A DNA stretch of 64,000 nucleotides from an uncultured Alphaproteobacteria bacterium (GTDB lineage: Bacteria > Pseudomonadota > Alphaproteobacteria > CBDUZE01): positions 177,668 to 241,667 of the forward strand of contig CBDUZE010000002.1 of assembly GCA_965371625.1 (NCBI GenBank), given 5' to 3'. The notes beneath the pieces were generated by a model that did not search any database, was not told the DNA's origin, and saw only the letters and a list, made by a program, of their open reading frames with translations. Below are positions 4,799 to 50,307 of this stretch, one piece after another; within the stretch, counting starts at the first letter, position 1, and the number at the start of each line of letters is the position of its first letter. The position numbers were made by a program, and so were the translations under genes.

Positions 4799-4799
4799 C

Positions 4800-6044
4800 G
4801 TGAAGCTGAGCCAAGTCCCGTATCGGAGCGCCCTCTTTGTTGCGGTCGTGATTGCCGTGCTCGTACGCCTTTTGGTGTTTGTGTTCGCAATCTACAATCC
4901 AATTCCCGACGAAAAAGGGGCGCCGGTCTCTCCGACCCTGGTCACGTCTTCAGTCGATTTCGGTTTCTATAGCCAGGCTGTTGAGACCTATTTCGGAGGT
5001 AACACCGGAACGATTATTGAATCTTTGCGTTCCTTCTACCAAGATCCCCGGAAGAACGGTACAGGATATATCGCTCCAGCTCCGCTTTTTCCTCTTTTCA
5101 TCCTTGGTTTTCGTTACGAGAAAGGTAACACGCTACCTCTATCCATCTGTTACTTGATACTCTCATGCGTGTTCTGCTGGGCATGGCTGAAGTGGCTGGA
5201 TTCGAGACAGGTCTCGGGTCTCTGGTTAGGCCTTTTTGCCCTCGTTCCAAATCCGATCTGGTACATGCTGGTCGTCTCTTCCGATTTACTATTCGCGGCG
5301 CTGTTTTGCGGATTCTATCTCTACTATTTCAAGGTCAGCTGGTCGACTCGGGATATCCTGTTATGGCTATTCTTCGGGGCGGCTTTGTTGCTGACCCGTC
5401 CGAACGCGACCTCGATCGCGCTGTTCGTGGTTGCCGATATCATCAGGCGACGGTACAGAGGCTCTCGAATGGGGCTTCTGATGATTGGCGGGTTCATTCT
5501 CTTCTCGGCCATCATGGTGGTGTTCTTTTATCCCTACTTCATCGTCTTCGTGAATGCGTCCCAGAAGCTCCCGTACTTTGGTTACGCCCCGGCCGACTAC
5601 GTCTCGGGCATTTACGAGTCCTTGCCAACCTGGTTAGACCGCGTGCTATCCGGCCTCAGTCTGGTCTTCGCGAAGATCTTGTACGCCGTGGGACTGCGGC
5701 CCTCCTACGGCGACACGCCTTTCCATCTCGTGGTGTTGCGATCCGCCCTCGGGATCGTGCTCCTGCCCGGTCTGATCTACATCGCCGTCAAGGGGGATTG
5801 GGCTCACCGGCTGTTGGTGGGCCTGGCGCTCGTGCCGGTTCTGGTCGGCGCGTCGCAGGACCGATATCTTCTGTTCATTCAACCGGTCATCTTCTTCTTC
5901 GGGGTTAGGGCGTACGGAGCGACGTGGGCGCTGCTCAGAGACCGACCGGCGTTTCGGGCCGTTCGGGCGCTCGCGGGGAACCGCGACGGGCGACTGGGGG
6001 CCGAGCGAGCGCCGCCGGAAGACCACCGGCTAAACCGACCTTGA
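4800..6044 (+). CDS. Polytopic membrane protein (about 10-11 TM), Wzy/O-antigen polymerase- or ligase-like
   Basis: GTG at 4800 immediately after the upstream TAG. Very hydrophobic and low-GC (~50%) relative to flanks, as is typical for wzy/wzx genes. No soluble catalytic motifs. Confidence 0.5.
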   Translation: MKLSQVPYRSALFVAVVIAVLVRLLVFVFAIYNPIPDEKGAPVSPTLVTSSVDFGFYSQAVETYFGGNTGTIIESLRSFYQDPRKNGTGYIAPAPLFPLFILGFRYEKGNTLPLSICYLILSCVFCWAWLKWLDSRQVSGLWLGLFALVPNPIWYMLVVSSDLLFAALFCGFYLYYFKVSWSTRDILLWLFFGAALLLTRPNATSIALFVVADIIRRRYRGSRMGLLMIGGFILFSAIMVVFFYPYFIVFVNASQKLPYFGYAPADYVSGIYESLPTWLDRVLSGLSLVFAKILYAVGLRPSYGDTPFHLVVLRSALGIVLLPGLIYIAVKGDWAHRLLVGLALVPVLVGASQDRYLLFIQPVIFFFGVRAYGATWALLRDRPAFRAVRALAGNRDGRLGAERAPPEDHRLNRP

Positions 6045-9526: not shown

Positions 9527-10657
9527 TCAGACGCGCCCTTGGGACGGGCCCAATACCGGCTTCGCATTGCCACCGCGTCCGGGTGTCCCCGCTAGCCAGG
9601 ACGCATACACCTCGCGAGAGGTCAGGAAAGTGAAAATGAAAACGACGAGTACCAAGTACCCGGTCCGGTAGCGTATGGCCGAGCCTGGATTCATGATTCC
9701 CAAGGGATAAGTCGAAAACAAAATCCAAAACGTCGTGAAAAGCCCGAGAATGAAATTATAGACAGGAACTTCTGGCAAGCGCTTAAGAAGAAAAAAGAGA
9801 AACATCGCGACCAAAATCGTACTTTCGATGAAGGACGAGATCTGTAAGATGCCCGTTGCCGCTTCGCTTAAGGTGGGACCGAAGAAGCTCTGGAACATGC
9901 CATAAGGCGCCTTCCAGAATACGTCGTATTGCTCCGTCCAATAGGGTTCTCGGGTCATTCGCCCAAAACCTACATTGAAATGACGTATGACTTCAAAGGA
10001 AAGTGCATCGATTTTATCACGAAAGGTATAAAGCGGAACAAGAGAAACAATGCCCACAGCTAGGGCGACGAACGCCTTCTGGCGAACCCGATATGCGATC
10101 TTCGAAACACCGATCAAGAATATGAACGCGATCACATACGGCAGCTTGAATATTGCGAGTGCTGCAAACGCAACTATGTGCAAGACGCTCAACTTCTCTC
10201 GATTGTAGTACATGTCAACAACATAGGAGCAACTAACCCCCACCGCGAAGACAACGATTGCTTCCTTTCCGGGAATCGAAGACCACACAGAAAACGATGG
10301 GAATAGAAGAATAAGTGCTACTCTTTTTCTGAACTTGGGCTCCAACGACATTAAGAACTTGACCAGCCCCACGAAAGCAACCGCCTGAAAGAACATGAAG
10401 ATCAAAAGCTCATTGCCGAAGCTGAGTATCTTAAAGAGACGTCCAAGATTCTGCGCTATGACGATCGCTATACCGCGCGATCCCTGGAGCGGGTCCGCCC
10501 CGAGCTGGACCACGTCAATCGCGGTGAAATCGGCACTGATGATTCGCGCTACGTCGCCGAGGCCGGTCAGGCGCGAGACGACAAAGAAGGCTAACGCGGA
10601 GTACGCGCAGCGATAAATGAACAGGAACACGTAGAAAGTGGGCCAGCCTATTGCCAT
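9527..10657 (-). CDS. Wzy-like O-antigen/EPS polymerase (polytopic membrane protein)
   Basis: ATG 'MAIGWPTFYVFLFIY' at 10657. About 10 TM. Low GC (~45%) embedded in a 68% GC locus. Adjacent to wzz. Confidence 0.55.
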   Translation of the reverse strand: MAIGWPTFYVFLFIYRCAYSALAFFVVSRLTGLGDVARIISADFTAIDVVQLGADPLQGSRGIAIVIAQNLGRLFKILSFGNELLIFMFFQAVAFVGLVKFLMSLEPKFRKRVALILLFPSFSVWSSIPGKEAIVVFAVGVSCSYVVDMYYNREKLSVLHIVAFAALAIFKLPYVIAFIFLIGVSKIAYRVRQKAFVALAVGIVSLVPLYTFRDKIDALSFEVIRHFNVGFGRMTREPYWTEQYDVFWKAPYGMFQSFFGPTLSEAATGILQISSFIESTILVAMFLFFLLKRLPEVPVYNFILGLFTTFWILFSTYPLGIMNPGSAIRYRTGYLVLVVFIFTFLTSREVYASWLAGTPGRGGNAKPVLGPSQGRV

Positions 10658-10727
10658 TGCTCGAATTTCGGACGCCGGCAAGGTTAGAGCTACAGGCCGC
10701 GGACGCAGAGCCCCAGCATTGACGAGA

Positions 10728-11735
10728 TCACCCTTCTCGCCGAAACAGGGCGACCAAAAGGATAAGCACGACGGCCAAGCCGAGCACGATCGCCACCGGA
10801 ATTCCAACCGATGCCGTCACCGAGGGCGAGGTCGGGATGTCGGAAACGAAGGCCGGCTCGATGATGCGGCCGGCGTAAGGCAGGGTGCTCTGAAGCATCA
10901 TGGCGGTATGCTCCTCGTTGGTGAGGAGCCCGATGAGGACGTCGCGCGTCTCCAACATCGAGGCGCTTCGCAGCTGTTCCTGAAGATAGGCTCGCCGTTC
11001 CGCAGTGGTCGCGCGATCCTGCTGGCGCAACAGCTCGTCGGCCTCGGCGTACACCGTGGTCAGGAGCTCGTAGGCAAAGTCGGGATCGGTGTGGGCGAAC
11101 GAGATACGCCGGAACGGCTCGAGCTTGAGCGTCTTGATCTCGATCGACGATTTGAGATACCTGGCCAGCGATTCGACCGTGGGCTCCGACCAGGTGCCGA
11201 GATGAAAGAGCCCCCGGAGGCGTTGTTCCCATTCGAATCTCCTGCCCGTGGGCCGGATCCATTTCCCTTCCTCGGGCGCCCACGATGCTTCGTAGACCTT
11301 CTGGAGGTACCCGTACTTCTGCTGCAGCAAACGAGCCAGGGTAAGCGAGGAGATCACCAGCTCCAGACGGTCGAAGGTCGTCGCCTGCTGCCCGCCGAGG
11401 TCGAGTCCGAAGCTCCTCGCCACACCCTTGAGACGGCTCGTCTGGCCGCCGGACTGCCCGATCGCGCCGCCCTGGGAGGGCGCAACGATCATTGCCGCCT
11501 CGAACTGCGGCACGAAATTGCGCATGTCCCTGAGGCCGTAGAGGGCGCCCAGGAAAACCAGCAGAAGGAGCAGCCATTTGCCGCGCCACACCGACCCGAC
11601 GAGAACCCGCAGATCGATGAGCTCCTCGCTCACGGGTCCGGCGACGGCGGTCGGGGCCGGGACGACGCCGGGGCTGGCGACCCGCGGCGAGCCTTGGGCC
11701 TGGTAGTCGGCGGGCTCCGGAACCTGCTCTGCCAT
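10728..11735 (-). CDS. Wzz/chain-length determinant (PCP-1 polysaccharide co-polymerase)
   Basis: ATG 'MAEQVPEPADYQ' at 11735. N-terminal TM 'WLLLLLVFLGALYGL', a long periplasmic coiled region, and C-terminal TM 'GIPVAIVLGLAVVLILLVALF'. 336 aa, so no kinase domain. Confidence 0.7.
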   Translation of the reverse strand: MAEQVPEPADYQAQGSPRVASPGVVPAPTAVAGPVSEELIDLRVLVGSVWRGKWLLLLLVFLGALYGLRDMRNFVPQFEAAMIVAPSQGGAIGQSGGQTSRLKGVARSFGLDLGGQQATTFDRLELVISSLTLARLLQQKYGYLQKVYEASWAPEEGKWIRPTGRRFEWEQRLRGLFHLGTWSEPTVESLARYLKSSIEIKTLKLEPFRRISFAHTDPDFAYELLTTVYAEADELLRQQDRATTAERRAYLQEQLRSASMLETRDVLIGLLTNEEHTAMMLQSTLPYAGRIIEPAFVSDIPTSPSVTASVGIPVAIVLGLAVVLILLVALFRREG

Positions 11736-12091
11736 GCCTGTGATCGAGGTTACCTTGGCGACGACACGTGCACCCCGCGACAGCCACACCCGCTGCCCCC
11801 GCGGCCGGCCGAAGAAACCAGGGCCCTCGTGGGCAATCGCGGGATTGCACAGGATCGTCGCAACTTGCGGGAACATGCCTAGCATACCTGAAGCGGTTAT
11901 TGAACAGTCGTGCATTCGCCGCCCGCCCGCATCGAGCGCGGGAATGGCCGGACGCGGTGCCTGCGGCCGGGGCAGCGGGGCGCTGGCGCGCGAGGCGCTC
12001 GCTCCCGGTTCTCCGGCGGCTTGATCGAGCGGGCCCGGCGCATCCCGGCACCTTGACCAAGCCGAGAAGCGCCAGCACTCTGCCTTCCGCG

Positions 12092-13311: not shown

Positions 13312-16300
13312 TCAATCGAGGATTTTGCTCCAGTAGCGGGCGACCGACCTGAGGCTGCCCTCCTGGGTCAGGAAGTAAAGGCGGTCCGGCACCGAGACCA
13401 TCTGACCGCCGTCGCGCGTGAGCGGGCGGAAGCTGAACAGACCCTTCGCGCGACTCGAGCGCAGCAGCAACGTGTCGAAGGGTATGGTGATGAAAAAGCC
13501 CTTGTCGAAGCTGCCCTCCCCGAAGTCATCGAACGAGACATCGGTGAAGGTGGTCCAGGCGCCGACGCGCATGCCGCTGCGAAACTCGCGGGAAAGCGTC
13601 AGGGTGACGCCATGGTCGCCGGCCAGGTAACGACCGACCTGGACCATGCCGAGCAGGTTGTACCAGGGCATCTCGTAATAGAGGCTGAGATGGCCGGTGA
13701 TGACGTCGTAGCCCCGGAAGTCGAAAAGCTGGTCGAAGTCGCGCTGACGCACGTAATTGACGTCGAGACCGAGCGCCCACCGCGCCCCGAAGGGCCGGTA
13801 GAGCAGCTCCGCCCCGACGCCGCCGAACATCTCCTCGAAGATCCCCGCGCTGACGCGGGCGTACCACTCGGGCCGCGGCGAGAAGACATAGGACGCATGC
13901 ATATTGATGATGTTGTTCTTGCCTTCCTTCAAGTACCTCTGGATGTCGCTTCTCACCCGGGGAAGCTTGCTATCGGACGGGGTCCGCAACCGGTCGAAGT
14001 TGTCGACCATGTTGACGCCGAACCTGGCGGTGAGGCTCAGGCCCCTCATCACCTCCACGCGGCTCGAAAAGGAGGTGAAGAGCTGATAGAGATAGAACGA
14101 CTCCGGCCCGCCGATGTGCTGGCGCAGCGCCGGCCGGATGTCCCAGCTAAACGCGGGATAGCGGTCCGGGTTGAGCGAGGCGTCATCCGCGATCTCACCA
14201 TCGGCCGGCCCCAGGCTGGCGTTGCTCCAGATCTCCTCCGGGCTCCCATTACTGGCGAGCGCGGCCTCGAGATCCCGGCGCATGATCGTGACCCGACTGA
14301 GCTCCATGCCCCGGGCCATGGTGACGACGCCGATCTCCTCGACCGAGGCCGGGGCGTGGTTGGCGACGACGCGGGCGGCGCGGCCGATGTTGCGGGCGGC
14401 CTCGGAAAACCGGGTAGGGGTAATGTAAACGGTTACCCGTTGCTCGGTCACGTGCACGGCGTCGGTCTCGAGGCCCTCCTTGGCGAGATCCTCGATCAGC
14501 GCCGCGTTATCGATACCCTCCGGGGCCCGCTCCGAAGCCGTCGGGCCCGCCGCCGCGGCTTCCCCTTTCTCGGCGACCTGAAGATCGCCGCTCGCGGGGC
14601 CTGAGTCATCGGGCGAGGAGCGGCGGAGCGTCCAGCGCCGGACCTCCGCTCCGGCGTGCATGCCAACCACCGTGATCTCGTCCATCGGTTCGGGCACCGT
14701 GTTCGACACGATCTCGGCCGCGGTGCGGTAGTCGGCGTCGCCGGACATCCCCGGGGCGGAGATATAGACGGTCGTGGTGCGGTGGGAGATGTCGACCGAT
14801 TCGAGATCGAAGCCCTCGGCCTCGAGGCCGTCGAAAAGGCTGTCGGCGACGGCGCTGCGCTTCATCTCCTCGCGGCGCAAAACGACGCGCTCGCGTTCGA
14901 CCCCGGCGGCCACGGTGATGATCCTGACCTGCTTCACGGGCATCGGCAGCGTTCTCAGCACCAGCCGGGCGGCCCGGCGATCGGCGAGATGGCCGCCGCC
15001 GCTGGGCCCGCGCGAGACGTAAACCTTGGCCTCGGAGTGGGACAGGTCGAGCGATTCGACCTCGAAGCCCTGGGCCTCCAGGCCGTCGAAGAGATAGTCG
15101 ACGATGGCCATCTCCTCGACCTGACCGCGCTCGAAGGTGACGCTCTTGCGCTCGCCCTTGGCGACCTCCGCCACCAGCGTGATCCTCTCGACCGGGCTGG
15201 GAACCGCTTCGGCCACCAACTGCGCCGCCCTGGCCAGGGCCAGGGAATCGTCGTTGAGCGCGCCGCGCTCGAGATAGACCCGGGCCTCGACGTGGGAAAG
15301 CTCGACCGAGGCGACCTCGAAGCCCTCGAGCTCCAGTCCGTCGAACAAGCGGTCCACCGCCGCCTCCCGGTCGCCGGGGGAGGGCGCCGCGCCGAGGGGT
15401 CGGTCCGCCTCGGGCGCCGGTGCCGTGGTGGGTAGCGAAGGCGCCAGCACCTTAGCCAGCGCTTGGTCCGCTTCCGGAACCTCGGGCAGTGGCGCCGGTG
15501 ACTCGGCCTCGGAGCCGGGACGCGGCCCCACCGCCGGGGGCGGCCGATCGAAGGGCTTCGGCAACCCCGGCGCATTGAGGTCGGAACGCACCGCGAAGCG
15601 CAGCATCAGCGAGTTGCCGCGTTCAAGGCCGATCGAGGCGTCGAACCACCGGAACGGCCGATAGTTGAGGGCGAAGTTGATCGGCAGGTCGACGTCGAAC
15701 CGGTTGGCGAGGGGCTCGCTTTTGTAGTCGTTGCCGTCGAACTCGAGCTTGGCGGTGAGGCCCCTGATCGGGGTGCGGTATTCGACCCCAAAGAACGGTG
15801 AGACGCTCCTGCCGGCGAAATAATCGTCGAATGAGGGCCGCCCGCCGCGCCCGCTGTCGGAATCGCGGCGGTTGAAGAGGCCCGAGAAAACCCTCATCGG
15901 ATTGGGCCACAGCCCGCGGCTGCCGGCATTGCCCCAGGCGATGCCGAAACTGAAGTCGAAGTCGTAGTAGCGCTTGCTGGCGACGATGTACTCGCTGGAG
16001 AACAGCCCCGTCCCCAATCCATCCTGGATGCCCACGGCAAGGGCCGGAAAATACTGGCTCTCGCGCACGAGCCTGATCTTGATGTCGGCGCCGCGATCCT
16101 TGAGCGTCTGATCGCCGCTGAACGCGGCACTGGAAGAGAACAGGCGATTGCGGATGTCAGTGTACCGAAAAGTCGCCTCGAGCCAGGGTAGGGCGTGGAG
16201 GTTTATGAAGTAGCGGCGGTACTCATCGACCAGGGAGGCGCCCACGTCGAGCTGCCCGTCGGGGCCGAAACGGGCGGTGCGTGTCTGGAGCAGCCCGACG

Positions 16301-16461
16301 CCGCCGAAATCGCTGCTCGAGACATGGTCTTCCAAGGGCGCGGTGCTCGGCTGGCCGACCGCCGGCGGCCCCGTCAGCAGCGCCAGCAGGCCGGCGCAGG
16401 CCGCGACAGCCTTGGGATTCGCCGCCACGCGCTTGCGTCGCGAGCCACGAGCCCGTTTCAT
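13312..16461 (-). CDS. yjbH: YjbH/GfcD-family outer-membrane polysaccharide protein with four internal ~87-aa repeats
   Basis: ATG 'MKRARGSRRKRVAANPKAVAACAGLLALL' (signal peptide) at 16461. The N-terminal YjbH-type region and the C-terminal region ending '...RYWSKILD' match YjbH architecture. The central segment (aa ~378-745) is made of 4 repeats, 'D.LFDGLE..GF...SV..SH....VY'. Confidence 0.7.
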   Translation of the reverse strand: MKRARGSRRKRVAANPKAVAACAGLLALLTGPPAVGQPSTAPLEDHVSSSDFGGVGLLQTRTARFGPDGQLDVGASLVDEYRRYFINLHALPWLEATFRYTDIRNRLFSSSAAFSGDQTLKDRGADIKIRLVRESQYFPALAVGIQDGLGTGLFSSEYIVASKRYYDFDFSFGIAWGNAGSRGLWPNPMRVFSGLFNRRDSDSGRGGRPSFDDYFAGRSVSPFFGVEYRTPIRGLTAKLEFDGNDYKSEPLANRFDVDLPINFALNYRPFRWFDASIGLERGNSLMLRFAVRSDLNAPGLPKPFDRPPPAVGPRPGSEAESPAPLPEVPEADQALAKVLAPSLPTTAPAPEADRPLGAAPSPGDREAAVDRLFDGLELEGFEVASVELSHVEARVYLERGALNDDSLALARAAQLVAEAVPSPVERITLVAEVAKGERKSVTFERGQVEEMAIVDYLFDGLEAQGFEVESLDLSHSEAKVYVSRGPSGGGHLADRRAARLVLRTLPMPVKQVRIITVAAGVERERVVLRREEMKRSAVADSLFDGLEAEGFDLESVDISHRTTTVYISAPGMSGDADYRTAAEIVSNTVPEPMDEITVVGMHAGAEVRRWTLRRSSPDDSGPASGDLQVAEKGEAAAAGPTASERAPEGIDNAALIEDLAKEGLETDAVHVTEQRVTVYITPTRFSEAARNIGRAARVVANHAPASVEEIGVVTMARGMELSRVTIMRRDLEAALASNGSPEEIWSNASLGPADGEIADDASLNPDRYPAFSWDIRPALRQHIGGPESFYLYQLFTSFSSRVEVMRGLSLTARFGVNMVDNFDRLRTPSDSKLPRVRSDIQRYLKEGKNNIINMHASYVFSPRPEWYARVSAGIFEEMFGGVGAELLYRPFGARWALGLDVNYVRQRDFDQLFDFRGYDVITGHLSLYYEMPWYNLLGMVQVGRYLAGDHGVTLTLSREFRSGMRVGAWTTFTDVSFDDFGEGSFDKGFFITIPFDTLLLRSSRAKGLFSFRPLTRDGGQMVSVPDRLYFLTQEGSLRSVARYWSKILD

Positions 16462-16685
16462 CAATCCGATATGGTCGCGACGCTGGGCCATGTGGCCTCA
16501 AGCAAGGAGCGAGGAGCGCAGGCCTGGGCGGCCATCATAAGCGATGAGCGACGACGGCTTGGGAGCAAAAACGGTACCTCGATTAACCTTGCGCCGGGCG
16601 TCGGCAGTCACGTCACACCGGCTCGACGATGCAACCGGCATCGCCTTCGCCGCAGCACCTGCCATCCGCCGCCCTTCGGAAAGGT

Positions 16686-19631
16686 CTAATTGCTGCTTAA
16701 GACGGCGAGGGATGCCGCCGTTATGGCTACCTGGCTCACCAGCAGGGTCATGTCCTTGGCGAACTGCAACAGGTTGAGCGGCGCCGGGTCCTTCGGCACC
16801 ACGATCGAGCTCCCGGGCGGTATCTGCACGGGCGTGAAGTTCCAGGCGCTGACCGACACCGGCTGCGCCTCGCCGTTGGGATAGACCACGAAGACACGGC
16901 TTTCATCGGCGGAGCGCTGGAAGCTGCCGGCCTGCTGAATATAGTCTTGGGCGGTCTTGCCGGCGGCAAATTGCAACGCCCCCGGGTTGAGCACGTCGCC
17001 GGTCACCGAGACGAAGTTGGGGCGCTTGGGCATGAACAGCCTGTCGCCCGGCTCGAGCACCGTATCGAGATCGGGACGCACTTGCAGCACCGTGGGATCC
17101 GCCTCGATCACGACGCGGCCCAACGCCTCGACCGACTGCACCTGCTGCGACAGCTCCTGGAGCGCCAGTACGCCGCGCGGGTCCGCTCCCGACTGCGCCG
17201 CGACCACGGCAAGGGCCGAGTTGAGTTCGCGGGCGGCGCGATTGAAGCCCACCTGCTGGGCCTTCTTTACCCGTTCGCGGGTAAAAACCGCGCCATAGGG
17301 ATAGGCCTGCGCCGTCAGGCCGCCGGCCCGGGCGACGAGTTCGGAGAGGCGTTCGCCGCGGCGAATGTGATAGAGGCCGGGCCGCAGGAACTCGCCCGAA
17401 AGCAAGACCGGCCCATCGTCGCGGTCGCTGAAGATGGCGTTGACGCGGATGACGTCGCCGGGATTGATCGCGACCTGTTGGGTCTCGGCGGCGCCCATAT
17501 CGACGCGGCGGCGCGAGATCGCGGCCGAAGCCTGCCCCGGGTCGCTGGGAAACTGGGACAACTCCACCTGCGAGAGATCGGCCTCGCGGGTCAGGCCGCC
17601 GGCGACGGCGACCAAAGAGGAGAGCGGCGTGCCCGGCGTGATCGGATAGGCGCCCGGCCGCCGTATCTCGCCGTTCACCGCCACCACGTGCTCGAGCAGG
17701 AACGGCAACATATCGGGGAACTGGTCGTAAAGCGGGGGACACGGCAGGCGGTTGGTGAAGGCCAGTTCGCTCTCGACGTCGATGGCGCGGACGGCGTTGG
17801 AAAAGCGTCCCTTTCGGCTGCCGGAAACGATCGCGGCGACGACCCGCAGGCCCGCGCAGACCTCTGCCACCGGTTCTTTCTTCTCGTCGCTCTCGAGGAC
17901 GATGCCCTTCCGGATGCCGGCTTGACGGCCACCGGTGTCCAAGAGACCCTCCAACAGGTCGCGGCGATCGCCGCCCGCGGCGGTCTCCCGATCCGAGTCC
18001 TCGGAACGCTGGCGACGTGCCTCGGTCTCCGCCTGCCTGCCGACGATCGCTCGTTTGGCGCGCTCGAGCCCGGGAACCGGCCGTCCCAGCAGCACGTCCT
18101 GAACGTCGGTCGACGAGAGATAGCGGACGTCATCGGCGCTCAGCACGATCAGCCTGTCGCCGTCGCGCAGGGAGAAATCCTCCTGGTTGCTCAGGACGCG
18201 CTGCAGGTTGATGGGAAAGAGGCGCCGCGAGCGGGTCGACGGATCGGTGGTCTCGAGCACCGCGAACAGGAGATAGGGGTTGTCCCGCAGCCGGTCCGGA
18301 GACGCGACCAGCGCCCGCACCGTCGGAGAAGATGCCAGCGAGCGCCGCCCCGGGACCCCAACGTGCCCCACGAACTCGACCGACCCGAGCTGCACGTCCA
18401 CGCGGCGCTGAACGATGACGATGTCGCCATCTGATACCGGCACCGAGGGGTCTCGTCGCTCGCTGACCTGTTGACGCCCGGTCTGATCGAACGAGATGTG
18501 ATAGAACACGTTTCCGCGCGGCCGCAGCGCGCCGCCCGCGTACCCGAGCAGGTCGGCGATGGTGATCTCCGAGCGGCCCTCGGCGAACTCATAAATGCCC
18601 GGGCGCTTGGCGTCGCCCCCAATGGCAACCGTCGAGCTGATCGACGGTACGAAGATGCGATCGCCGTCAAAAAGACGCAGGCTTCGCCCCACGTTGCCCG
18701 AGATCAGCAGCTCGTAAAGGTCGATCCAGAATATCTCGTCACCGCGGTGGACCTGTATGAGGCGAAGGCTTCCGGTCTTCTTTACGCCACCGGCGAATCC
18801 GATGGCGTCGATTATCGTCGACAACCCGGTAAGCTGGTGCAGCCCGGGACTGCCAACCTCACCCACGACAATCACCGAAATCAGTCGCACCGAACCCACC
18901 GAGACGAAGACGTCGGTACCGAGCAGCGCCGTCGCCGTGCGCGCCTCGAGCTCGCGACGGAACTCGCCGAAGGTCCTTCCGGCGGCGGCAATGGGCGGCA
19001 TGTTGCCGAGCACCACCCGGCCCTCGCGATCCACCAGGACGGATTGGGTGCCGGTCTCCTGGCCGAGAAAGGTGATGATGAGCTCGTCGCTAATGCCGAG
19101 AATGTAGTCCTCCGAAATCGCCCCCGTGGTCAGCTCCTCGAGCTCGAACTCGCCATCGAAGAGCTCGTAACCGAACTGCAAGAGCGTTTCCTGGGCGCGG
19201 GTGCAGTAGTCCCGCTCGAGCCTGGAGAACTTCTTGAGGGTGCGGACCAGCCGTAGGTTTTCCTCGCTGATCTCACCGCGGCAGAAGTCCTCGACCAGCA
19301 TCAGCTCGATCTCGGTGAAGCTGTTGCGCAGTTCCGGAGCGAAACCCAGGATCGATGATTCCCGGCGCGGCCGTTCTCGCCGCTCGATCCCGGGTCGGCT
19401 GCCGGCGCGGCGCGCGCGCTCGAGCTCGTTGGTGGCGCCACCCAAGATGGAGCCCCTGCCCCGCCCGCCCCCCTGCTGCAGCGTGTCGAGCTGCTGGAGG
19501 AAGTCGAGCAGCCCGCTGCCTGCTTGTTGCGCTTGCACGCGGTGGGCCGCCGCGTATGTCGACAACCCGACGACAAGGGCGCAAAATATGACCGCTGGCC
19601 TCGCCCACCGCTGTCTACCTGTCCGTCTCAT
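16686..19631 (-). CDS. Polysaccharide export protein, Wza/KpsD-like with Poly_export domain plus about 5 SLBB domains (981 aa)
   Basis: ATG 'MRRTGRQRWARPAVIFCALVVGLSTYAAAH' carries a signal peptide with no lipobox Cys. 'YILGISDELIITFLGQE...VLVDREGRVVLGNMPPIAAAGRTFGEFRREL' matches the Poly_export/PES motif. It is followed by repeated SLBB-like 'PGxY.l..g..l.dai..AGG' units and a C-terminal amphipathic helix. The track start at 19637 is a TTG. Confidence 0.75.
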   Translation of the reverse strand: MRRTGRQRWARPAVIFCALVVGLSTYAAAHRVQAQQAGSGLLDFLQQLDTLQQGGGRGRGSILGGATNELERARRAGSRPGIERRERPRRESSILGFAPELRNSFTEIELMLVEDFCRGEISEENLRLVRTLKKFSRLERDYCTRAQETLLQFGYELFDGEFELEELTTGAISEDYILGISDELIITFLGQETGTQSVLVDREGRVVLGNMPPIAAAGRTFGEFRRELEARTATALLGTDVFVSVGSVRLISVIVVGEVGSPGLHQLTGLSTIIDAIGFAGGVKKTGSLRLIQVHRGDEIFWIDLYELLISGNVGRSLRLFDGDRIFVPSISSTVAIGGDAKRPGIYEFAEGRSEITIADLLGYAGGALRPRGNVFYHISFDQTGRQQVSERRDPSVPVSDGDIVIVQRRVDVQLGSVEFVGHVGVPGRRSLASSPTVRALVASPDRLRDNPYLLFAVLETTDPSTRSRRLFPINLQRVLSNQEDFSLRDGDRLIVLSADDVRYLSSTDVQDVLLGRPVPGLERAKRAIVGRQAETEARRQRSEDSDRETAAGGDRRDLLEGLLDTGGRQAGIRKGIVLESDEKKEPVAEVCAGLRVVAAIVSGSRKGRFSNAVRAIDVESELAFTNRLPCPPLYDQFPDMLPFLLEHVVAVNGEIRRPGAYPITPGTPLSSLVAVAGGLTREADLSQVELSQFPSDPGQASAAISRRRVDMGAAETQQVAINPGDVIRVNAIFSDRDDGPVLLSGEFLRPGLYHIRRGERLSELVARAGGLTAQAYPYGAVFTRERVKKAQQVGFNRAARELNSALAVVAAQSGADPRGVLALQELSQQVQSVEALGRVVIEADPTVLQVRPDLDTVLEPGDRLFMPKRPNFVSVTGDVLNPGALQFAAGKTAQDYIQQAGSFQRSADESRVFVVYPNGEAQPVSVSAWNFTPVQIPPGSSIVVPKDPAPLNLLQFAKDMTLLVSQVAITAASLAVLSSN

Positions 19632-20331
19632 GCCCAAGACCCCAAATACTCAGCAGAGGTTCGGCGAGGCCGCGCTCCCGCGACGACGCGTGCTCGCTTG
19701 CGGCACCGCGTTCCTGCTTGCTGGGTGCGCGGACGTTCCGGTGCTGGCCAACGCCGTCGATGCCCTGAGGATTGCGGTCATCGGCGCGCCCGACCCGCCG
19801 ATCGAGCGGGCCGCGATCGCGAAATTACCATATGCCTCGATGAGCGCAAAGATCGGAAAGGGCGCGCGTGGCATGCTCGTTCTGGGGCGCTACGATGGCG
19901 ACGATTTACACTGGGTCGCGGGCGGTTCGGGCATCATCGTCACGCGCCACGGACGCGTGGTCAAGACCGCTGGCCTTCCCGTCAACCTCAAGGACACCCG
20001 CGCCTTCCGCGAGGACCCGGTGGCGACGCGGCTGCATCGGCTGGAAAAGCCGGTGGAATACGTCCGTTACGTCGATATCGAACCGGGTCACCGTTACGAC
20101 CTGCCGATTCGGTCGCGGTTCGAGACCGTTGGACCGCAGCGTATAACCATCGTCGAGATCGAGTTCAAGACCGTGCTCGTGCGCGAGGTCAACGAAGCCG
20201 GGACCATGAACTGGAAATTCGAGAACCTCTACTGGGTCGATATCTTCGACGGCTTCGTATGGAAAAGCCGCCAGCATATCGCGCGCGGGATGCCGCCACT
20301 CGAACTCGAGGTGCTCAAACCGGCGGCATAA
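19630..20331 (+). CDS. yjbF: YjbF/GfcB-family lipoprotein
   Basis: ATG at 19630. Signal peptide with lipobox 'AFLLAGC'. About 233 aa. Located in a yjbEFGH-like cluster. The start overlaps the divergent wza-like start (CATG). Confidence 0.6.
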   Translation: MPKTPNTQQRFGEAALPRRRVLACGTAFLLAGCADVPVLANAVDALRIAVIGAPDPPIERAAIAKLPYASMSAKIGKGARGMLVLGRYDGDDLHWVAGGSGIIVTRHGRVVKTAGLPVNLKDTRAFREDPVATRLHRLEKPVEYVRYVDIEPGHRYDLPIRSRFETVGPQRITIVEIEFKTVLVREVNEAGTMNWKFENLYWVDIFDGFVWKSRQHIARGMPPLELEVLKPAA

Positions 20332-20429: not shown

Positions 20430-20705
20430 TCACTGCGCCGGCGCATTGGTGGCGGGGGTGGCCGTCGTGTTGTTGTCGGAGCTCGTGGCGCTAAGGGCGA
20501 TGACGATGGCGATCGCCGCGGCGAAACCGACGCCCGTGGCAACCAGCGCATCACGCAGCCTGTCGTCCTTATCGCTGAGGGCGCTCACGCCCGCGGCCGC
20601 GCCCTTGCCGGTATTGGTGGCCTGGGATTGGGCAAGCGCCGGCCCTGGGGAGGCCCCCAGCACCAAAGCAGCGAGGTACGAGATCAAGGTCTTCTTTGAA
20701 ACCAT
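20430..20705 (-). CDS. yjbE: YjbE-like small secreted Ala/Gly/Thr-rich protein
   Basis: 91 aa, 'MVSKKTLISYLAALVLGASPGPALAQSQATNTGKGAAAGVSALSD'. Signal peptide plus a low-complexity region, the size and composition of YjbE. Confidence 0.6.
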   Translation of the reverse strand: MVSKKTLISYLAALVLGASPGPALAQSQATNTGKGAAAGVSALSDKDDRLRDALVATGVGFAAAIAIVIALSATSSDNNTTATPATNAPAQ

Positions 20706-25035: not shown

Positions 25036-25953
25036 TCAGCGGCCGACGGCAAGCTTCGCCGGGTCGCGGCCCTGGCCTCGCGCGCGGCCTGCGATCAGCG
25101 GCGCCACCGCCACCCACCACTCCGGCTGGAGGGCGCGGGTCGCCGCCGCCGCCGCCTGAGCCGCCCGGGCCTCGGGAAAGATGCCGAAACAGGTGGCGCC
25201 ACTGCCCGACATCCGCGCCAGCAGACAGCCGGGCTGGTCCTCGAGCAGCCGCAACACTCGGCCAATCGCCGGGACCATCGCCGCCGCCGGCCGCTCGAGG
25301 TCGTTGCGCCGGCTCGCCAACAGCCCGGCCAACTGCGACGCCGAGGTCGGCGTCTCGGCGAAGCGCCCGGGCCCCGACGGCGCGCCGCGCAAGGCAGCGA
25401 AAACCTCCCCGGTCGGCGCCGGCGGTCCCGGGTTCACCAGCACCACGTCGACGGGCGGCAGCTTCTGAGCCGGCGCCACCTTCTCGCCGACGCCGCTCAC
25501 GAAGACGGTTTGCCCGGCCAGGCAGGCCGGCACGTCCGCCCCCAACGAGAGCCCGAGCGCGCGCAACTGGTCCTCATCGATCGCGAGCCCCCATAATTCG
25601 ACCAACGCCCGCAGCGCCGCCGCCGCGTCGGCCGAGCCCCCGCCCAGCCCCGCCGCCACCGGCAGACGCTTCTCGAGCGACATCCGCGCGCCGGCCTCGA
25701 CCCCGGCGGCGGCGGCCAACGCGCGGGCGGCTCGCATCACCAAGTTGCCGTCGTCGTCCGTGACCAGGGAAGCGAAAGGTCCGCTGACCGCGAGCGACAG
25801 CGCTGCCGCCGGACCCACCTCGAGGGCGTCGCCGACGGCGGCGAAGGCGACCAAGCTGTCGAGCAGGTGGTATCCGTCGGCCCGCTTGCCGACAACGTGG
25901 AGGTAGAGGTTGATCTTGGCGGGCGCGGCGCGGCGGACGACTCGCTCCTCCAC
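25036..25953 (-). CDS. ispE: 4-(cytidine 5'-diphospho)-2-C-methyl-D-erythritol kinase
   Basis: 'APAKINLYLHVVGKRADGYH' and the GHMP kinase motif 'PVAAGLGGGSADAAAAL'. GTG start. Confidence 0.85.
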   Translation of the reverse strand: MEERVVRRAAPAKINLYLHVVGKRADGYHLLDSLVAFAAVGDALEVGPAAALSLAVSGPFASLVTDDDGNLVMRAARALAAAAGVEAGARMSLEKRLPVAAGLGGGSADAAAALRALVELWGLAIDEDQLRALGLSLGADVPACLAGQTVFVSGVGEKVAPAQKLPPVDVVLVNPGPPAPTGEVFAALRGAPSGPGRFAETPTSASQLAGLLASRRNDLERPAAAMVPAIGRVLRLLEDQPGCLLARMSGSGATCFGIFPEARAAQAAAAATRALQPEWWVAVAPLIAGRARGQGRDPAKLAVGR

Positions 25954-25959
25954 GGGCGC

Positions 25960-27720
25960 TCAGCTCCCCTCTTTGGCGGGCTCGCGGGGCGTCAGGCCCA
26001 GCTTCAGCTTGGCCTCGATGGCCGGTACGAGCTCCTCGTCCGGGGTGAAGGAAAGCGCGCGCCGCCATTGGAATCGGGCCTCGTTAACACGATCGACGCG
26101 CCAGTATGCGTCGCCCAGATGGTCGTTGATGGTGGGGTCCTCGGGCCGCAGCTCGACCGCGCGCTCGAGCTGCTCCACGGCCTCGATGTAGCTGCCCATC
26201 CGGTAGTAGACCCAGCCCAGGCTGTCGACGATGTAACCGTCGTTGGGCCGCAGCTCGACCGCCTTCTCGATCATCCCCAGCGCCCGCTCGAAGTTGTCCC
26301 CTTGCTCGACCCAGGAATAGCCCAGGTAGTTGAGCACCAGAGGCTGGTCCGGCTTGAGCTCGAGGGCGTGGAGGAAATCGGCCTCGGCGCGAGTCCACTG
26401 GCGCGAGCGCTCGAGGGCGATGCCCCGCGCGTACAACAGCGACCAGTGGCGCTCCTCGAACTCGGAAATGCGCTCGAACACTCCGTCGTAGGCGTCCGCC
26501 GCCTCTTGGTAACGCTCGCGGCCGCGCAAGATGTCGGCCAAGGTGACCAGCGCCTCGATGCGCCCGGTGCGCTCCTCGGCCATCTCGCGGAGCCGCTCCA
26601 CCGCCTCGTCGGTGCGATCGATTCGATCCAGCGCCGAGGCGACGCGTAGGCGCGCGTTCCAACCATAGGGCGAGTCGCGGCCTATCTCGTCGTAGGTCTC
26701 GATGGCATCGTCCCAGCGGCGCTCGCCTTCGAACAGCTCGCCGAGCAGCGTCCGCGCCACCGCCAGATCGGACTGCATGAAGAGGGCGAGTCGGGAGTAG
26801 TTCTGAGCCGAGTCCTGCGCGTTGTCCTGTGCCAAGGCACTGGCGACGTCGAACAGCGCCTCGGCGACGCCGCTCGAGGGGTCGGCAACGAGAGCCCGCG
26901 GCGGCATCCCCTTGTCGAACCGCGCCAGGGTGTCCGAGATCACCGGATTATCGGGTCTGCGCTCCAGGTACTCGAGGTAAAGCTCCCGCGCCTCCTGCCC
27001 CCGACCGTTCTTTTCGAGGAACGAGCCGAAGGCCTCGATCATGCGTTGGGTGCCGCCGGAGGTCTCCTCGACGGCCTCCCGGAAGGCCGCTTCGGCCGCC
27101 TCGTCGCGCCCGGCGAAGTCGTGAATCAGGGCGCCATGAAAGGCGCGAAACGAGGCGAACGACTCGGTCTCCGTGAGTGCCTCGAGGGCGGCGACCGCGG
27201 CGTCGTACTGCTCGCCCGCGGCCAGCGCCCAGGCGCCGAGGAGTGGCACGAGCAAGGTATTGAAGCCCGAGCTCGGCGCTGCCTTCAGGCGCCCCAGCAC
27301 CGATTCGTAGTCGCCCTTCTTGAAGTCGCCGAGCGCCGCCACCAAGTGCGCGATGCCGGTGCGGGGGGACTGCTCGACGACCTTGATGGCGAGCGGCATC
27401 GCCTCGTCGATGCGGCCGTCGGCGACGAAGAGGAAGAAGGTCCGGCGCAGCAGCGCCACGTTGTCCGGATCCTCGGCCAGCGCCATGGCGTAAAAATCGG
27501 CCGCCGCCTCGATATCCTTGCCCGAGCGGGCGAAGCGTCCCGCCAGATAGCTGCCAAGGGGCGACTCGAGCCGGGCCTCCGGCATCGGCGCCGGTGCCTG
27601 CGGGACTGGCGCGGGTGGCGGGAGCTCCGATTGGGGCACGCAGGTGGCGATCAGGCCGAGAGCCAAGGCCAGCGCCACGGTCATCGCCGCGGTCGTCAAC
27701 GCCGAGTGTCGTCGCACCAA
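25960..27720 (-). CDS. Tetratricopeptide-repeat lipoprotein
   Basis: Signal peptide/lipobox 'ALALGLIATC'. Multiple TPR units ('AADFYAMALAEDPDN', 'YLGYSWVEQGDNFERALGMIEKAVELRPNDGY...'). Directly upstream of ispE, a conserved alphaproteobacterial arrangement. TTG start. Confidence 0.75.
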   Translation of the reverse strand: MVRRHSALTTAAMTVALALALGLIATCVPQSELPPPAPVPQAPAPMPEARLESPLGSYLAGRFARSGKDIEAAADFYAMALAEDPDNVALLRRTFFLFVADGRIDEAMPLAIKVVEQSPRTGIAHLVAALGDFKKGDYESVLGRLKAAPSSGFNTLLVPLLGAWALAAGEQYDAAVAALEALTETESFASFRAFHGALIHDFAGRDEAAEAAFREAVEETSGGTQRMIEAFGSFLEKNGRGQEARELYLEYLERRPDNPVISDTLARFDKGMPPRALVADPSSGVAEALFDVASALAQDNAQDSAQNYSRLALFMQSDLAVARTLLGELFEGERRWDDAIETYDEIGRDSPYGWNARLRVASALDRIDRTDEAVERLREMAEERTGRIEALVTLADILRGRERYQEAADAYDGVFERISEFEERHWSLLYARGIALERSRQWTRAEADFLHALELKPDQPLVLNYLGYSWVEQGDNFERALGMIEKAVELRPNDGYIVDSLGWVYYRMGSYIEAVEQLERAVELRPEDPTINDHLGDAYWRVDRVNEARFQWRRALSFTPDEELVPAIEAKLKLGLTPREPAKEGS

Positions 27721-27843
27721 TCGTATCCCTTGGCTCTTGCCTTCAGGCTCGATTCCCGAGCCCCGTCATAGCCGCCATTATACACAGGTCCGACGCGGTC
27801 ATGGACCCGTTATGCAGCCGCCCGCGAGAGCTCCCGGAGCCGC

Positions 27844-29496
27844 TTACATGTTGGGATAGTTGGGCCCGCCGCCGCCCTCGGGCACCACCCAATCGATGTT
27901 CTGAGTAGGGTCCTTGATGTCGCAGGTCTTGCAGTGAACGCAGTTCGGGGCGTTGATCTGCAGCCGCGGGTTGCCGCCGTCATCGTCCGCGACGATCTCG
28001 TAGACGCCGGCCGGACAGTATCTTTGTTCCGGGGCGTCGTAGCGCGCCAGGTTGACGGCGATGGGCACCGATTCGTCCTTGAGCCGGAGGTGGACCGGCT
28101 GGTCCTCCTCGTGGTTGGTGTTGGAGATGTAGACCGACGACAAGCGGTCGAAGCTCACCACCCCGTCGGGCTTGGGATAGTCGATCTTCTCGCACTCGGC
28201 CGCCGGTTTGAGGCTGAGATGGTCGGGATGGTGGTGAAAGGTCCACGGCGCGCGACCCCTGAGGAGCTTGAGCTCGAGGCCGGTATAGAGGGTTCCGGCG
28301 ATCAGGCCCCAGCGGAACGCAGGGCGCACGTTGCGCGCGACGCGAAGCTCGTCGTGGAGCCACGAGCCTGCGATCAGCTCGGGGTAGCGGGAGAGCTCGC
28401 GGCGCCCCTCGGCGCCCGGGCCAAGCGCCTCGAACACCGCTTCGGCCGCCAGCATGCCCGACTTCATGGCGGTGTGCGTGCCCTTGATCTTGGGTACGTT
28501 GAGAAACCCCGCCGCGCAGCCCACCAGGGCGCCGCCCGGGAACACCAGCTTGGGGACCGACTGCAGACCGCCCTCGTTGATCGCCCGCGCCCCGTAGGCG
28601 ACGCGTTCCCCGCCCTCGAAAGTGGGCCGGATCGCCGGGTGGGTCTTGAAGCGCTGGAACTCATCGAAGGGCGAGAGATGCGGGTTCTGGTAATCGAGGG
28701 CGACGACGAAGCCGACCGCAACCTGATGGTCCTCGAGGTGGTACATGAAGGAGCCGCCATAGGTCTTGCGGTCGAGCGGCCAGCCCGCGGTGTGCATCAC
28801 CAGCCCCTGGCGGTGCTTCTCGGGCGCGACCCGCCACAGCTCCTTGATGCCGATGCCGTAGATCTGGGGATCGGCGTCCTCGCGCAAGGCGAAGCGCTCA
28901 AAGAGGGTCTTCGAGAGCGAGCCCCGGCAGCCCTCGGCGAACAGCGTATGGCGCGCGTGGAGCTCCATGCCGGGCATGAAGGTGTCCTTGTGCGAGCCGT
29001 CGCCGGCGACCCCCATGTCGCCGGTGGCCACTCCCTTGACGCCGCCGTGGGCGTCATAGAGCACCTCGGCGGCGGCGAAGCCGGGATAGACCTCGACCCC
29101 CAGCTCCTCGGCCTGAGTGCCGAGCCAGCGGCACAGGCTGCCCAGGCTGATGACGTAGTTGCCGTGGTTGGCGAACTCGGGCGGGAGCAGGAAGTTGGGC
29201 ACCTTGAAGGCGCCGCCGGGGCCCAGGAACATCATCCGCTCCTCGGTCACCGGGGCGTTGAGCGGCGCCCCGCGGGCCTCCCAGTCGGGGATCAGCTCGT
29301 TGAGCGCACGGGGCTCGAGCACCGCGCCCGAGAGGATATGGGCGCCCACCTCCGAGCCCTTTTCGAGGACGCAGACGGTGACCTCGCGAGCGCTTTCCTG
29401 GGCCAACTGCTTGAGCCGGATCGCCGCGCTCAGGCCCGCCGGACCGGCGCCCACGATCACCACGTCGAACTCCATCGACTCGCGTTCCATCGCCAC
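27844..29496 (-). CDS. Electron-transfer flavoprotein:ubiquinone oxidoreductase
   Basis: FAD fold 'FDVVIVGAGPAGLSAAIRL'. C-terminal 4Fe-4S 'CPAGVYEI...NCVHCKTCDIKDP'. Confidence 0.9.
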   Translation of the reverse strand: MAMERESMEFDVVIVGAGPAGLSAAIRLKQLAQESAREVTVCVLEKGSEVGAHILSGAVLEPRALNELIPDWEARGAPLNAPVTEERMMFLGPGGAFKVPNFLLPPEFANHGNYVISLGSLCRWLGTQAEELGVEVYPGFAAAEVLYDAHGGVKGVATGDMGVAGDGSHKDTFMPGMELHARHTLFAEGCRGSLSKTLFERFALREDADPQIYGIGIKELWRVAPEKHRQGLVMHTAGWPLDRKTYGGSFMYHLEDHQVAVGFVVALDYQNPHLSPFDEFQRFKTHPAIRPTFEGGERVAYGARAINEGGLQSVPKLVFPGGALVGCAAGFLNVPKIKGTHTAMKSGMLAAEAVFEALGPGAEGRRELSRYPELIAGSWLHDELRVARNVRPAFRWGLIAGTLYTGLELKLLRGRAPWTFHHHPDHLSLKPAAECEKIDYPKPDGVVSFDRLSSVYISNTNHEEDQPVHLRLKDESVPIAVNLARYDAPEQRYCPAGVYEIVADDDGGNPRLQINAPNCVHCKTCDIKDPTQNIDWVVPEGGGGPNYPNM

Positions 29497-39936: not shown

Positions 39937-40010
39937 GACCCGATTTACCTTCACCCTAGAAATCATAAGACCAATTGTGATGTCCCCGGCATAATGAGGA
40001 GTGTATCGGC

Positions 40011-44431: not shown

Positions 44432-45553
<1,122 letters not shown>

Positions 45554-47488: not shown

Positions 47489-47697
47489 CACAGGTTCCTT
47501 CTCAAGTTCCAATCTGCTGAAAAGCCCCTCCTTTGTCACTGATTTGGGTGATACGTTTCCTTATCAAACCCTCCATCCGCATCCGACATTTGCGCCAATT
47601 GCCGTGCTCATGCTATCTCCGCTGGGCCAGTGGGCCGCCGAGAGCGAAGAGCATACCGTGGCCGAGTTGCCGCCGCGCGGCATCACTGCTCGGCGCG
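46478..47697. repeat. Segmental duplication copy A (about 1.22 kb, ~93% identical to 49091-50307)
   Basis: Identity starts exactly at the PRP stop codon and extends ~210 bp upstream of the PRP start. Small indels in the 5' flank. Confidence 0.85.
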
Positions 47698-50101: not shown

Positions 50102-50307
50102 CACAGGCTCCTTCTCAAGTTCTAATCCGCTGAAAAGCCTCTCTTTTGTCACTGATTTGGGTGATACGTTTCCTTATCAAACCCTCCATTCGTATCCGGA
50201 ACTCGTGCCAATTGCTGTGCTCGTGCCATCTCCGCCGGGCGAGTGCACCGCTGAGAGCGGAGAGCATACTGTGGCCGAGTTGCGCCGCGCGGCATCACTG
50301 CTCGGCG
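49091..50307. repeat. Segmental duplication copy B
   Basis: See copy A. Confidence 0.85.

Follow-up and report, generated by a model that had tools for sequence, protein, structure and literature searches.

Is a polysaccharide exporter of the Wza/KpsD kind that runs to 981 amino acids (aa) and carries no lipobox an unusual conduit, and how might its product leave the cell? The question is raised by a gene in a stretch of 64,000 nucleotides from an uncultured alphaproteobacterium (contig CBDUZE010000002.1, positions 177,668 to 241,667; "the window" below), for which a preliminary description based on the sequence had proposed either an unusually long periplasm-spanning conduit or a fusion with accessory capsule proteins. 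There is little doubt that the 981-aa protein is a Class 2 (KpsD-type) outer membrane polysaccharide export (OPX) protein, a real but ordinary member of its class: its length, signal peptide, number of SLBB domains, GfcC module, and even gene neighbors are typical of Class 2 OPX proteins. Its size is explained by the fused GfcC module, and its length is not unusual.

To dissect the protein, we combined Pfam (cutoffs of 28 bits for Poly_export, 27 for SLBB, 22.1 for Caps_syn_GfcC_N, and 20 for Caps_syn_GfcC_C) with an AlphaFold2 (AF2) model of the monomer, built from a 111-sequence alignment and reaching a mean predicted local distance difference test score (pLDDT) of 83. In the whole-protein scan, Poly_export was found at residues 173 to 245, SLBB (PF10531; 131.8 bits) and SLBB_2 (101.3 bits) matched four stretches each, and Caps_syn_GfcC_N and Caps_syn_GfcC_C followed at residues 757 to 866 and 883 to 948. 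In scans of the whole protein or of isolated units, the two GfcC families scored above their cutoffs, with 24 to 29 and 41 to 46 bits, respectively. The parts of the gene are as follows, in window coordinates.

16686..19631, minus strand: whole coding sequence of the OPX protein assigned to Class 2, 981 aa plus stop, from the ATG at 19631.
19530..19631, minus strand: residues 1 to 34, predicted Sec/signal peptidase I (SPI)-type signal peptide (MRRTGRQRWARPAVIFCALVVGLSTYAAAHRVQA, followed by QQ) without lipobox, from sequence inspection and conservation of Q35.
19332..19529, minus strand: residues 35 to 100, low-complexity, low-confidence, probably disordered region (pLDDT 40 to 66, no Pfam match).
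19152..19319, minus strand: residues 105 to 160, three-helix N-terminal domain with C117 and C143, leading into Poly_export (pLDDT 86 to 97, no Pfam match).
18891..19115, minus strand: residues 173 to 247, Poly_export (PES, Wza D1; PF02563, 41.8 bits; aligned to Wza 2J58).
18642..18884, minus strand: residues 250 to 330, SLBB unit A, equivalent to Wza D2 (SLBB 37.1 bits, SLBB_2 36.6 bits; beta-grasp in the model).
18402..18632, minus strand: residues 334 to 410, SLBB unit B, equivalent to Wza D3 (SLBB 18.9 bits, below the cutoff; alignment to Wza D3; beta-grasp in the model).
18138..18383, minus strand: residues 417 to 498, divergent beta-grasp unit C (no Pfam match; beta-grasp pattern at pLDDT >90; weak cross-matches from the family SLBB profiles).
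17688..18137, minus strand: residues 499 to 648, linker with a helix at 522 to 549, a disordered part at 549 to 585, a helical part at 593 to 647, and C592 and C631 (model and alignment).
17436..17687, minus strand: residues 649 to 732, SLBB unit D (SLBB 49.2 bits, SLBB_2 36.3 bits).
17031..17411, minus strand: residues 741 to 867, SLBB unit E with a helical-hairpin insert at 786 to 833, equivalent to GfcC D2 (Caps_syn_GfcC_N, PF20616, 28.9 bits; SLBB 29.1 bits; alignments to 3P42).
16797..17015, minus strand: residues 873 to 945, SLBB unit F, equivalent to GfcC D3 (Caps_syn_GfcC_C, PF06251, 46.2 bits; SLBB 27 bits; 3P42 residues 58 to 198 aligned, E value of 7.7e-15).
16689..16784, minus strand: residues 950 to 981, conserved C-terminal helix (ending in SQVAITAASLAVLSSN), a candidate for outer membrane insertion or docking (helix at 954 to 975, low pLDDT).

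The AF2 model contains six beta-grasp units (A to F in the list), so the count of about five SLBB domains given in the preliminary description was right, and the motifs quoted there belong to units 1, 4, 5, and 6. Scanned singly against Pfam SLBB, three units score above the cutoff, two (B and F) score below it, and C has no match; profiles made from each unit cross-match the starts of the others at residues 251, 334, 417, 649, 742, and 874. A chain of two SLBB domains with otherwise nonhomologous filler, the outcome that would have refuted the preliminary description, is not what the domain scan returned. The N-terminal region, the linker, and unit C gave no Pfam match, and their assignment is taken from the AF2 model alone. 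With NCBIfam we obtained only subthreshold matches (EpsE, Wza, EpsY, and PEP-CTERM exporter models), and there is therefore no curated equivalog.

Comparison with solved structures identified both halves of the protein. Residues 199 to 370 match Wza (2J58) with an E value of 4e-14 when the sequence is compared with the Protein Data Bank (PDB), and residues 799 to 943 match GfcC (3P42) with an E value of 2.7e-12 in a phmmer search of the same database. A profile of the C-terminal 247 residues, made from 21 diverse relatives, reaches an E value of 7.7e-15 against 3P42 and is colinear with it from the helical hairpin to the "W-N...PPGS" motif. Foldseek likewise returned Wza (3e-15 to 1e-14) and GfcC (5.5e-11), the latter over about 238 aligned columns on a chain of 225 to 234 residues, which is the whole GfcC chain; next after these two came poly-ubiquitin chains, i.e., tandem beta-grasps. 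Residues ~742 to 981 are a complete GfcC/YjbG module, composed of two beta-grasp domains, the first of which carries the helical hairpin, and a terminal helix. The N-terminal half is Wza-like, with Poly_export and three beta-grasp units, and is followed by a variable linker, one SLBB unit, and the GfcC module. Since a Wza-like half is joined to a complete GfcC module, the protein has the architecture Poly_export-SLBB(n)-GfcC, and the suggested fusion with an accessory capsule protein is borne out by Pfam, phmmer, the profile, and Foldseek alike.

Poly_export-SLBB(n)-GfcC is the architecture of Class 2 OPX proteins, with KpsD from E. coli as the type (Saidi et al. 2022, PMC9603273). In subclass 2B, but not in 2A, the GfcC module is followed by a Wza_C-like helix that spans the outer membrane; Class 2B proteins have a median length of 824 aa, and ~83% of them carry Sec/SPI signal peptides (PMC9603273). 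Table S2 of the same paper lists Rhodospirillales members of 981 to 990 aa with 5 to 7 SLBB domains, among them two Class 2B proteins of Niveispirillum cyanobacteriorum (981 and 983 aa, with six and five SLBB domains), one of Nitrospirillum amazonense (985 aa, Class 2B), and one of Indioceanicola profundi (990 aa, Class 2A, seven SLBB domains) (PMC9603273). We found a Niveispirillum homologue of 983 aa (L030) on a 1-Mb replicon, with 41.5% identity over residues 132 to 981, and paired it with the Table S2 entry by its equal length; that entry had been called Class 2B, i.e., with Wza_C, by HHpred (PMC9603273). The idea that the protein is unusually long does not survive this comparison: its premise fails because Wza, a 380-aa lipoprotein, is the wrong baseline. 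That the protein could nevertheless act as a long conduit across the periplasm would be compatible with its geometry.

Our own searches agree with this. A word-index search gave 572 matches at an E value of ≤1e-10 among 8,000 scored candidates, and the best 120 are mostly 930 to 1,000 aa long with the same Pfam set; when 1.84 billion cluster representatives were searched exhaustively, 3,359 proteins matched at ≤1e-30, and the best 150 are mostly 850 to 1,000 aa long. The family also has longer members of ~1,190 to 1,325 aa (P0050, with 1,191 aa, P0010, P0018, P0058, and P0077). In P0050, the one variant examined, the extra length is a duplicated internal module made of the Cys-helical region and two SLBB domains, suggesting that such duplication is one way in which the OPX family grows.

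Could the length nevertheless be an annotation artifact, in which a Wza-like gene and a yjbG/gfcC gene were read through because of a sequencing or assembly error? The position of the variable, partly disordered linker (residues 549 to 585) at the junction of the two halves is what such an error might leave behind. However, more than 100 independent homologues from different assemblies show the same uninterrupted architecture of 930 to 1,000 aa, the isolate genomes of Iodidimonas, Niveispirillum, and a member of the Sphingosinicellaceae among them, and codon bias is uniform along the open reading frame (ORF). The homologue set refutes the artifact, whose probability we consider negligible.

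Residues 520 to 630 are unaligned in many alphaproteobacterial relatives, and the whole linker (499 to 648) is absent from gammaproteobacterial and Nitrospirota relatives. In the 111 aligned homologues, C117 and C143 are kept in at least 90% and C592 and C631 are invariant, and it is tempting to speculate that these two pairs, located in regions without a Pfam match, may form periplasmic disulfides. At the C terminus, A969, T971 to S974, A976, and V977 are kept in at least 90% of the same homologues, and the last 18 positions are taken uniformly by small, hydrophobic residues. The amphipathic helix with which the protein had been said to end was recovered in part: a helix is predicted at residues 954 to 975, with low confidence, but it is only moderately amphipathic, with a hydrophobic moment of 0.31 that is reached by 3.7% of shuffles.

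The 981-aa protein is encoded on the minus strand, in an ORF (16686..19637) that opens at an in-frame TTG (19637), with the ATG of MRRTGRQ... two codons further in (19631). GC content at the three codon positions is 0.69/0.47/0.84, as is typical of genuine genes in this window of ~68% GC, and together with hundreds of full-length homologues this supports the ORF as coding; that the protein is real, as described, is not in question. Because the frame opens only two codons before the ATG, no longer N terminus with a hidden lipobox is possible. The sole N-terminal cysteine, C17 in "VIFC", has Phe at position −1 and just 5 hydrophobic residues ahead of it, and it is therefore not in a lipobox; the hydrophobic core runs past it and ends in AHRVQA, directly before QQ. 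Among the 111 homologues, Q35 is kept in at least 90%, the conserved site A-x-A followed by Q fits signal peptidase I, and C17 is not conserved as a lipobox; a chance lipobox-like match occurs in 8 of the 111, at varying positions. The protein is thus predicted, from sequence inspection and conservation, to be secreted via Sec/SPI without acylation, and the lack of a lipobox that had been noted in the preliminary description stands, a lipobox behind a miscalled start having been rejected.

We also rejected a shorter start at V32. The database copy P0001 has 950 aa, 31 residues less, and P0002, a close relative of P0001, begins with "MQAQQAG"; both fit a gene call that begins at V32 and so loses the signal peptide. 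The longer N terminus is kept in homologues with 60 to 75% identity, P0003 to P0008, and the ATG at 19631 is therefore preferred.

Turning to the surroundings of the gene, a polysaccharide locus fills ~0 to 24 kb of the window, with a DegT aminotransferase, an epimerase, several GT4 and GT2 glycosyltransferases, a Wzz-domain protein, DUF3108, and Wzi. The genes that bear on the OPX protein are the following.

10728-11915, minus strand: Wzz-domain protein (Pfam).
13312..16491, minus strand: YjbH/GfcD-type double beta-barrel of 1,059 aa, directly downstream of the OPX gene (PF06082, 739 bits).
19630..20331, plus strand: YjbF/GfcB-type lipoprotein with the lipobox LLAGC, divergent from the OPX gene (PF11102, 142.8 bits; same position in L001 to L003, L030, and L031).
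20430..20705, minus strand: 91-aa secreted protein rich in Ala, Gly, Ser, and Thr, a candidate YjbE/GfcA counterpart (translation).

The 91-aa ORF has a signal peptide and a hydrophobic stretch and gave no Pfam match; L031 has a 90-aa gene in the same place, between DUF3108 and yjbF. In type, the block in the window corresponds to yjbEFGH/gfcABCD, with the G/C component forming part of the OPX protein; the arrangement of yjbF, OPX::GfcC, and yjbH is conserved in L001 to L003, L030, and L031. Among the window ORFs scanned with Pfam (36, short of every ORF), neither an ABC transporter nor a second OPX gene was found, and from the lack of an ABC transporter and the presence of Wzz and Wzi we infer a pathway of the Wzx/Wzy type. 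Two ORFs of ~430 aa in the locus, at 4755-6044 (plus strand) and 9527-10807 (minus strand), have lower GC and no Pfam match; the missing Wzy polymerase or Wzx flippase could be among them.

The start of the OPX gene lies very close to that of its divergent neighbor. At 19629-19632, the OPX ATG (minus strand) and the first yjbF ATG (plus strand) overlap inside one CATG, so that the two genes would start head-to-head with zero intergenic region, and the coding region of the OPX gene contains, at 19559-19587, a sigma-70-like match for yjbF. The spacing between the two genes in relatives is ~60 to 160 bp. One of them may use another start; for yjbF, GTG at 19690 would give a poor signal peptide.

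To see how general this gene order is, we compared 28 related loci from species-representative genomes. In 18 of them, the OPX gene is followed directly by a yjbH homologue, with gaps of ~10 to 200 bp, and these 18 are all from Alphaproteobacteria, including Iodidimonas, Kordiimonadaceae, Emcibacteraceae, and Rhodothalassiaceae. Wzi adjoins the OPX gene in the gammaproteobacterial and Nitrospirota loci. In published counts, YjbH/GfcD homologues were found near OPX genes 4 to 5 times for Class 2A and 18 to 19 times for Class 2B (PMC9603273). On the 2.9-Mb contig of L031 (57% identity), the order is ispE, a 270-aa gene, DUF3108, the 90-aa gene, yjbF, OPX (957 aa), and yjbH (1,002 aa). The OPX gene of Iodidimonas and that of a Sphingosinicellaceae isolate come directly after genes for ETF-ubiquinone oxidoreductase (ETF-QO), a TPR protein, and ispE (L006, 2891-7380; L016, 3184-7626), and the window carries ETF-QO, the TPR protein, and ispE (GHMP kinase) at 25036-29496 (minus strand). 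This shared position points to a vertically inherited chromosomal locus and not to a mobile capsule island.

The YjbH/GfcD partner in the window is itself enlarged. Its periplasmic middle domain, with the motif LFDGLExEGF...SH, occurs four times in tandem (residues 372 to 454, 455 to 539, 540 to 623, and 662 to 745), which explains the length of 1,059 aa. In the AF2 model (pLDDT 82.8), the repeats lie between an N-terminal barrel (80 to 304) and a C-terminal barrel (759 to 1021), and they weakly resemble the periplasmic ring-building domains of PrgH (Foldseek probability of 0.97 to 0.98, E value of ~0.01). Long forms of 830 to 1,100 aa are the norm among the best 120 YjbH homologues.

What could such a set of proteins do together? 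The gene very likely encodes the Class 2 OPX protein of a chromosomal exopolysaccharide or capsule locus, an assignment that leaves the exit route open, and the most likely role of the protein would be that of the periplasmic conduit of a Wzy-type polysaccharide pathway. By analogy with Wza and KpsD, it would oligomerize, probably as an octamer, its stacked rings forming the periplasmic conduit, and its Poly_export ring would contact the Wzz-type inner membrane co-polymerase encoded nearby. The fused GfcC module and the lipoprotein YjbF might then keep the nonlipidated conduit at the outer membrane, up against the double barrel of YjbH; we give docking of the GfcC module to YjbF and YjbH a chance that comes near to even. 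In E. coli, GfcB and GfcC form a heterodimer with a KD of ~100 nM that binds GfcD, and OtnG of Burkholderia thailandensis is a GfcC-GfcD fusion (PMC8592465); such fusions are a second, independent indication that GfcC and its partners work in contact.

Several observations weigh against this picture. There is no adjacent yjbH in 10 of the 28 loci; those from Sphingomonadales, Micavibrio, Gammaproteobacteria, and Nitrospirota have sufficient flank, and one further locus, L017, is on a contig that ends 235 bases past the OPX gene and cannot show the neighbor; docking to YjbH is therefore not obligatory family-wide, unless the partner is encoded elsewhere. Neither a flippase nor a polymerase was identified among the 36 ORFs scanned. 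The isolated last 42 residues gave no match to Wza_C (PF18412) in Pfam even at an E value of ≤10, the C-terminal helix is modeled at low confidence, and an AF2 monomer cannot show the oligomeric state, insertion into the outer membrane, or contact with YjbF and YjbH.

Two exit routes have to be weighed. The OPX protein could be sufficient by itself, as membership in Class 2B would imply, with eight C-terminal helices forming a pore in the outer membrane through which the polymer exits, as in Wza and as has been proposed for KpsD and Class 2B; YjbF and YjbH would then belong to a different route, e.g., for a lipid- or protein-linked glycan, or act as regulators. All relatives end in this C terminus, which is hydrophobic, highly conserved, and colinear with that of a KpsD-like protein; the 983-aa Niveispirillum entry (matched to L030 by length) is Class 2B by HHpred (PMC9603273), and the relatives from Sphingomonadales, Gammaproteobacteria, and Nitrospirota manage without an adjacent yjbH; moreover, GfcD has been modeled as an exporter of lipid-anchored chains (PMC11494523). 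The missing Wza_C match does not fit such a pore, nor does a predicted helix of ~22 residues at low pLDDT compared with 35 residues in Wza (PMC9603273), and the tail past the last GfcC-aligned residue has 37 residues compared with 38 in the periplasmic GfcC, a comparison that is shaky if the 3P42 construct was tagged. Exit through the OPX protein itself is a real possibility, to which we would give somewhat less than an even chance.

Alternatively, the OPX protein may stop short of the outer membrane, with the GfcC module and YjbF plugging the conduit onto the C-terminal barrel of YjbH as the exit, analogous to the systems of Class 3 OPX proteins and beta-barrels in Myxococcus. Such a division of labor would account for the tight adjacency of OPX and yjbH genes in the 18 loci, for yjbF and a yjbE-like gene alongside, and for the lack of any other OPX gene among the scanned ORFs of the window; it is also in line with the binding of GfcD by GfcB-GfcC and the existence of GfcC-GfcD fusions such as OtnG (PMC8592465). 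The idea has already been raised for Class 2 OPX proteins (PMC9603273), and translocons of Class 3 OPX proteins and porins are established (PMC12819527). It leaves the conserved hydrophobic terminal helix without a role, however, and many family members have no adjacent yjbH; we give exit through YjbH a chance clearly below even. Its strictest form, in which the OPX protein of this alphaproteobacterial lineage never crosses the outer membrane and GfcC and YjbF couple a long six-SLBB tube to YjbH, whose fourfold domain perhaps matches it as a ring or spacer, appears rather unlikely. If it were true, this would be a fourth composite translocon, "Class 2 plus GfcD-type barrel," and GfcBCD/YjbFGH would gain a defined job as the outer membrane exit and docking station of a Wzy-type pathway.

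For the assignment as an OPX protein of Class 2, which does not depend on the choice between these routes, the significance is modest. The window adds one sequence to a large and already catalogued class, and outside the Wza paradigm it is normal for OPX proteins to be long, nonlipidated, and multi-SLBB. There is some value in the gene context, a natural "Rosetta stone" in which one gene encodes the OPX protein together with GfcC and has GfcB- and GfcD-type genes on either side; this context supports the published, hypothetical idea of GfcC-type modules as the link between OPX conduits and GfcD/YjbH barrels. The function of GfcBCD/YjbFGH would be tractable in cultured relatives that share this block, e.g., Niveispirillum.

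Apart from the polysaccharide locus, the window has a low-GC island at 38500-42113 (47 to 53% versus ~68% elsewhere), with a trypsin-like peptidase at 38986-39936 (plus strand) and a 700-aa S8 subtilase at 40011-42113 (plus strand). Rfam found no RNA families in the whole window, and the low-GC stretch at 38 to 42 kb is thus not an rRNA operon; the island looks horizontally acquired. Two pentapeptide-repeat proteins of 353 aa, 91% identical and ~2.6 kb apart, are encoded at 46478-47539 and 49091-50152 (both minus strand), in a region of lower GC (57 to 61%). A CcrM-like adenine methyltransferase (N6_N4_Mtase and RAMA domains) at 44465-45553 (plus strand) fits the alphaproteobacterial origin.

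How, then, does the protein compare with known systems? Closest are the Class 2 OPX proteins of Rhodospirillales, known from sequence, which resemble it in length, Sec/SPI signal peptide, and Poly_export followed by 5 to 7 SLBB domains and a GfcC region, and which differ from it only by sequence divergence and in details of the partners. In Niveispirillum (L030), yjbF is divergent upstream and yjbH directly downstream, as in the window, but YjbH has 843 aa there, in contrast to the 1,059 aa and four middle-domain copies of the window protein.

For KpsD of E. coli, the OPX protein of a group 2 capsule and prototype of Class 2B, we used a KpsD-like protein of 557 aa as a stand-in; it is encoded in a kps-type cluster of the Citrobacter plasmid NZ_CP056211. 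By BLASTP, the two proteins are colinear at both ends, residues 146 to 407 of the query aligning with 61 to 321 (E value of 2e-18) and residues 808 to 972 with 395 to 551 (7e-14), the latter block taking in the terminal helix. KpsD shares with the window protein the lack of lipidation, N-terminal Poly_export and SLBB domains, the GfcC-like C-terminal region, and the terminal helix, whereas the window protein is longer by ~400 residues in its middle (the linker and units C, D, and part of E) and by ~85 at the N terminus. KpsD works with the KpsMT ABC transporter, KpsE, and KpsC/S; the neighbors in the window are instead Wzz-type, Wzi, YjbF, and YjbH, and KpsM/KpsT, KpsE, and KpsC/KpsS were not found among the 36 scanned ORFs.

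Wza from E. coli K30 (Class 1 OPX, 2J58) has Poly_export (D1) and the beta-grasp domains D2 and D3, which are homologous to those of the window protein, and its role as a ring-stacked periplasmic conduit is presumed for the latter as well. Wza is, however, a lipoprotein of ~380 aa with a 35-residue Wza_C helix, in contrast to the window protein with neither a lipobox nor a Wza_C Pfam match, which instead has three further beta-grasp units and, after SLBB, a GfcC module in place of Wza_C. In E. coli, the group 4 capsule and yjbEFGH operons encode GfcC/YjbG as a periplasmic protein in its own right (3P42); its whole fold is reproduced by residues ~742 to 981, and its partners GfcB/YjbF and GfcD/YjbH also adjoin the OPX gene. 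GfcC/YjbG is a separate protein of ~250 aa in E. coli, whereas in the window it is the C-terminal module of the OPX protein, and no separate gfcC/yjbG (PF06251) protein was found among the scanned neighbors in the locus. OtnG shows the same principle with another partner: GfcC is likewise covalently joined to a component of the machinery, but in OtnG this component is the beta-barrel, whereas in the window it is the OPX protein, with the barrel as a separate protein.

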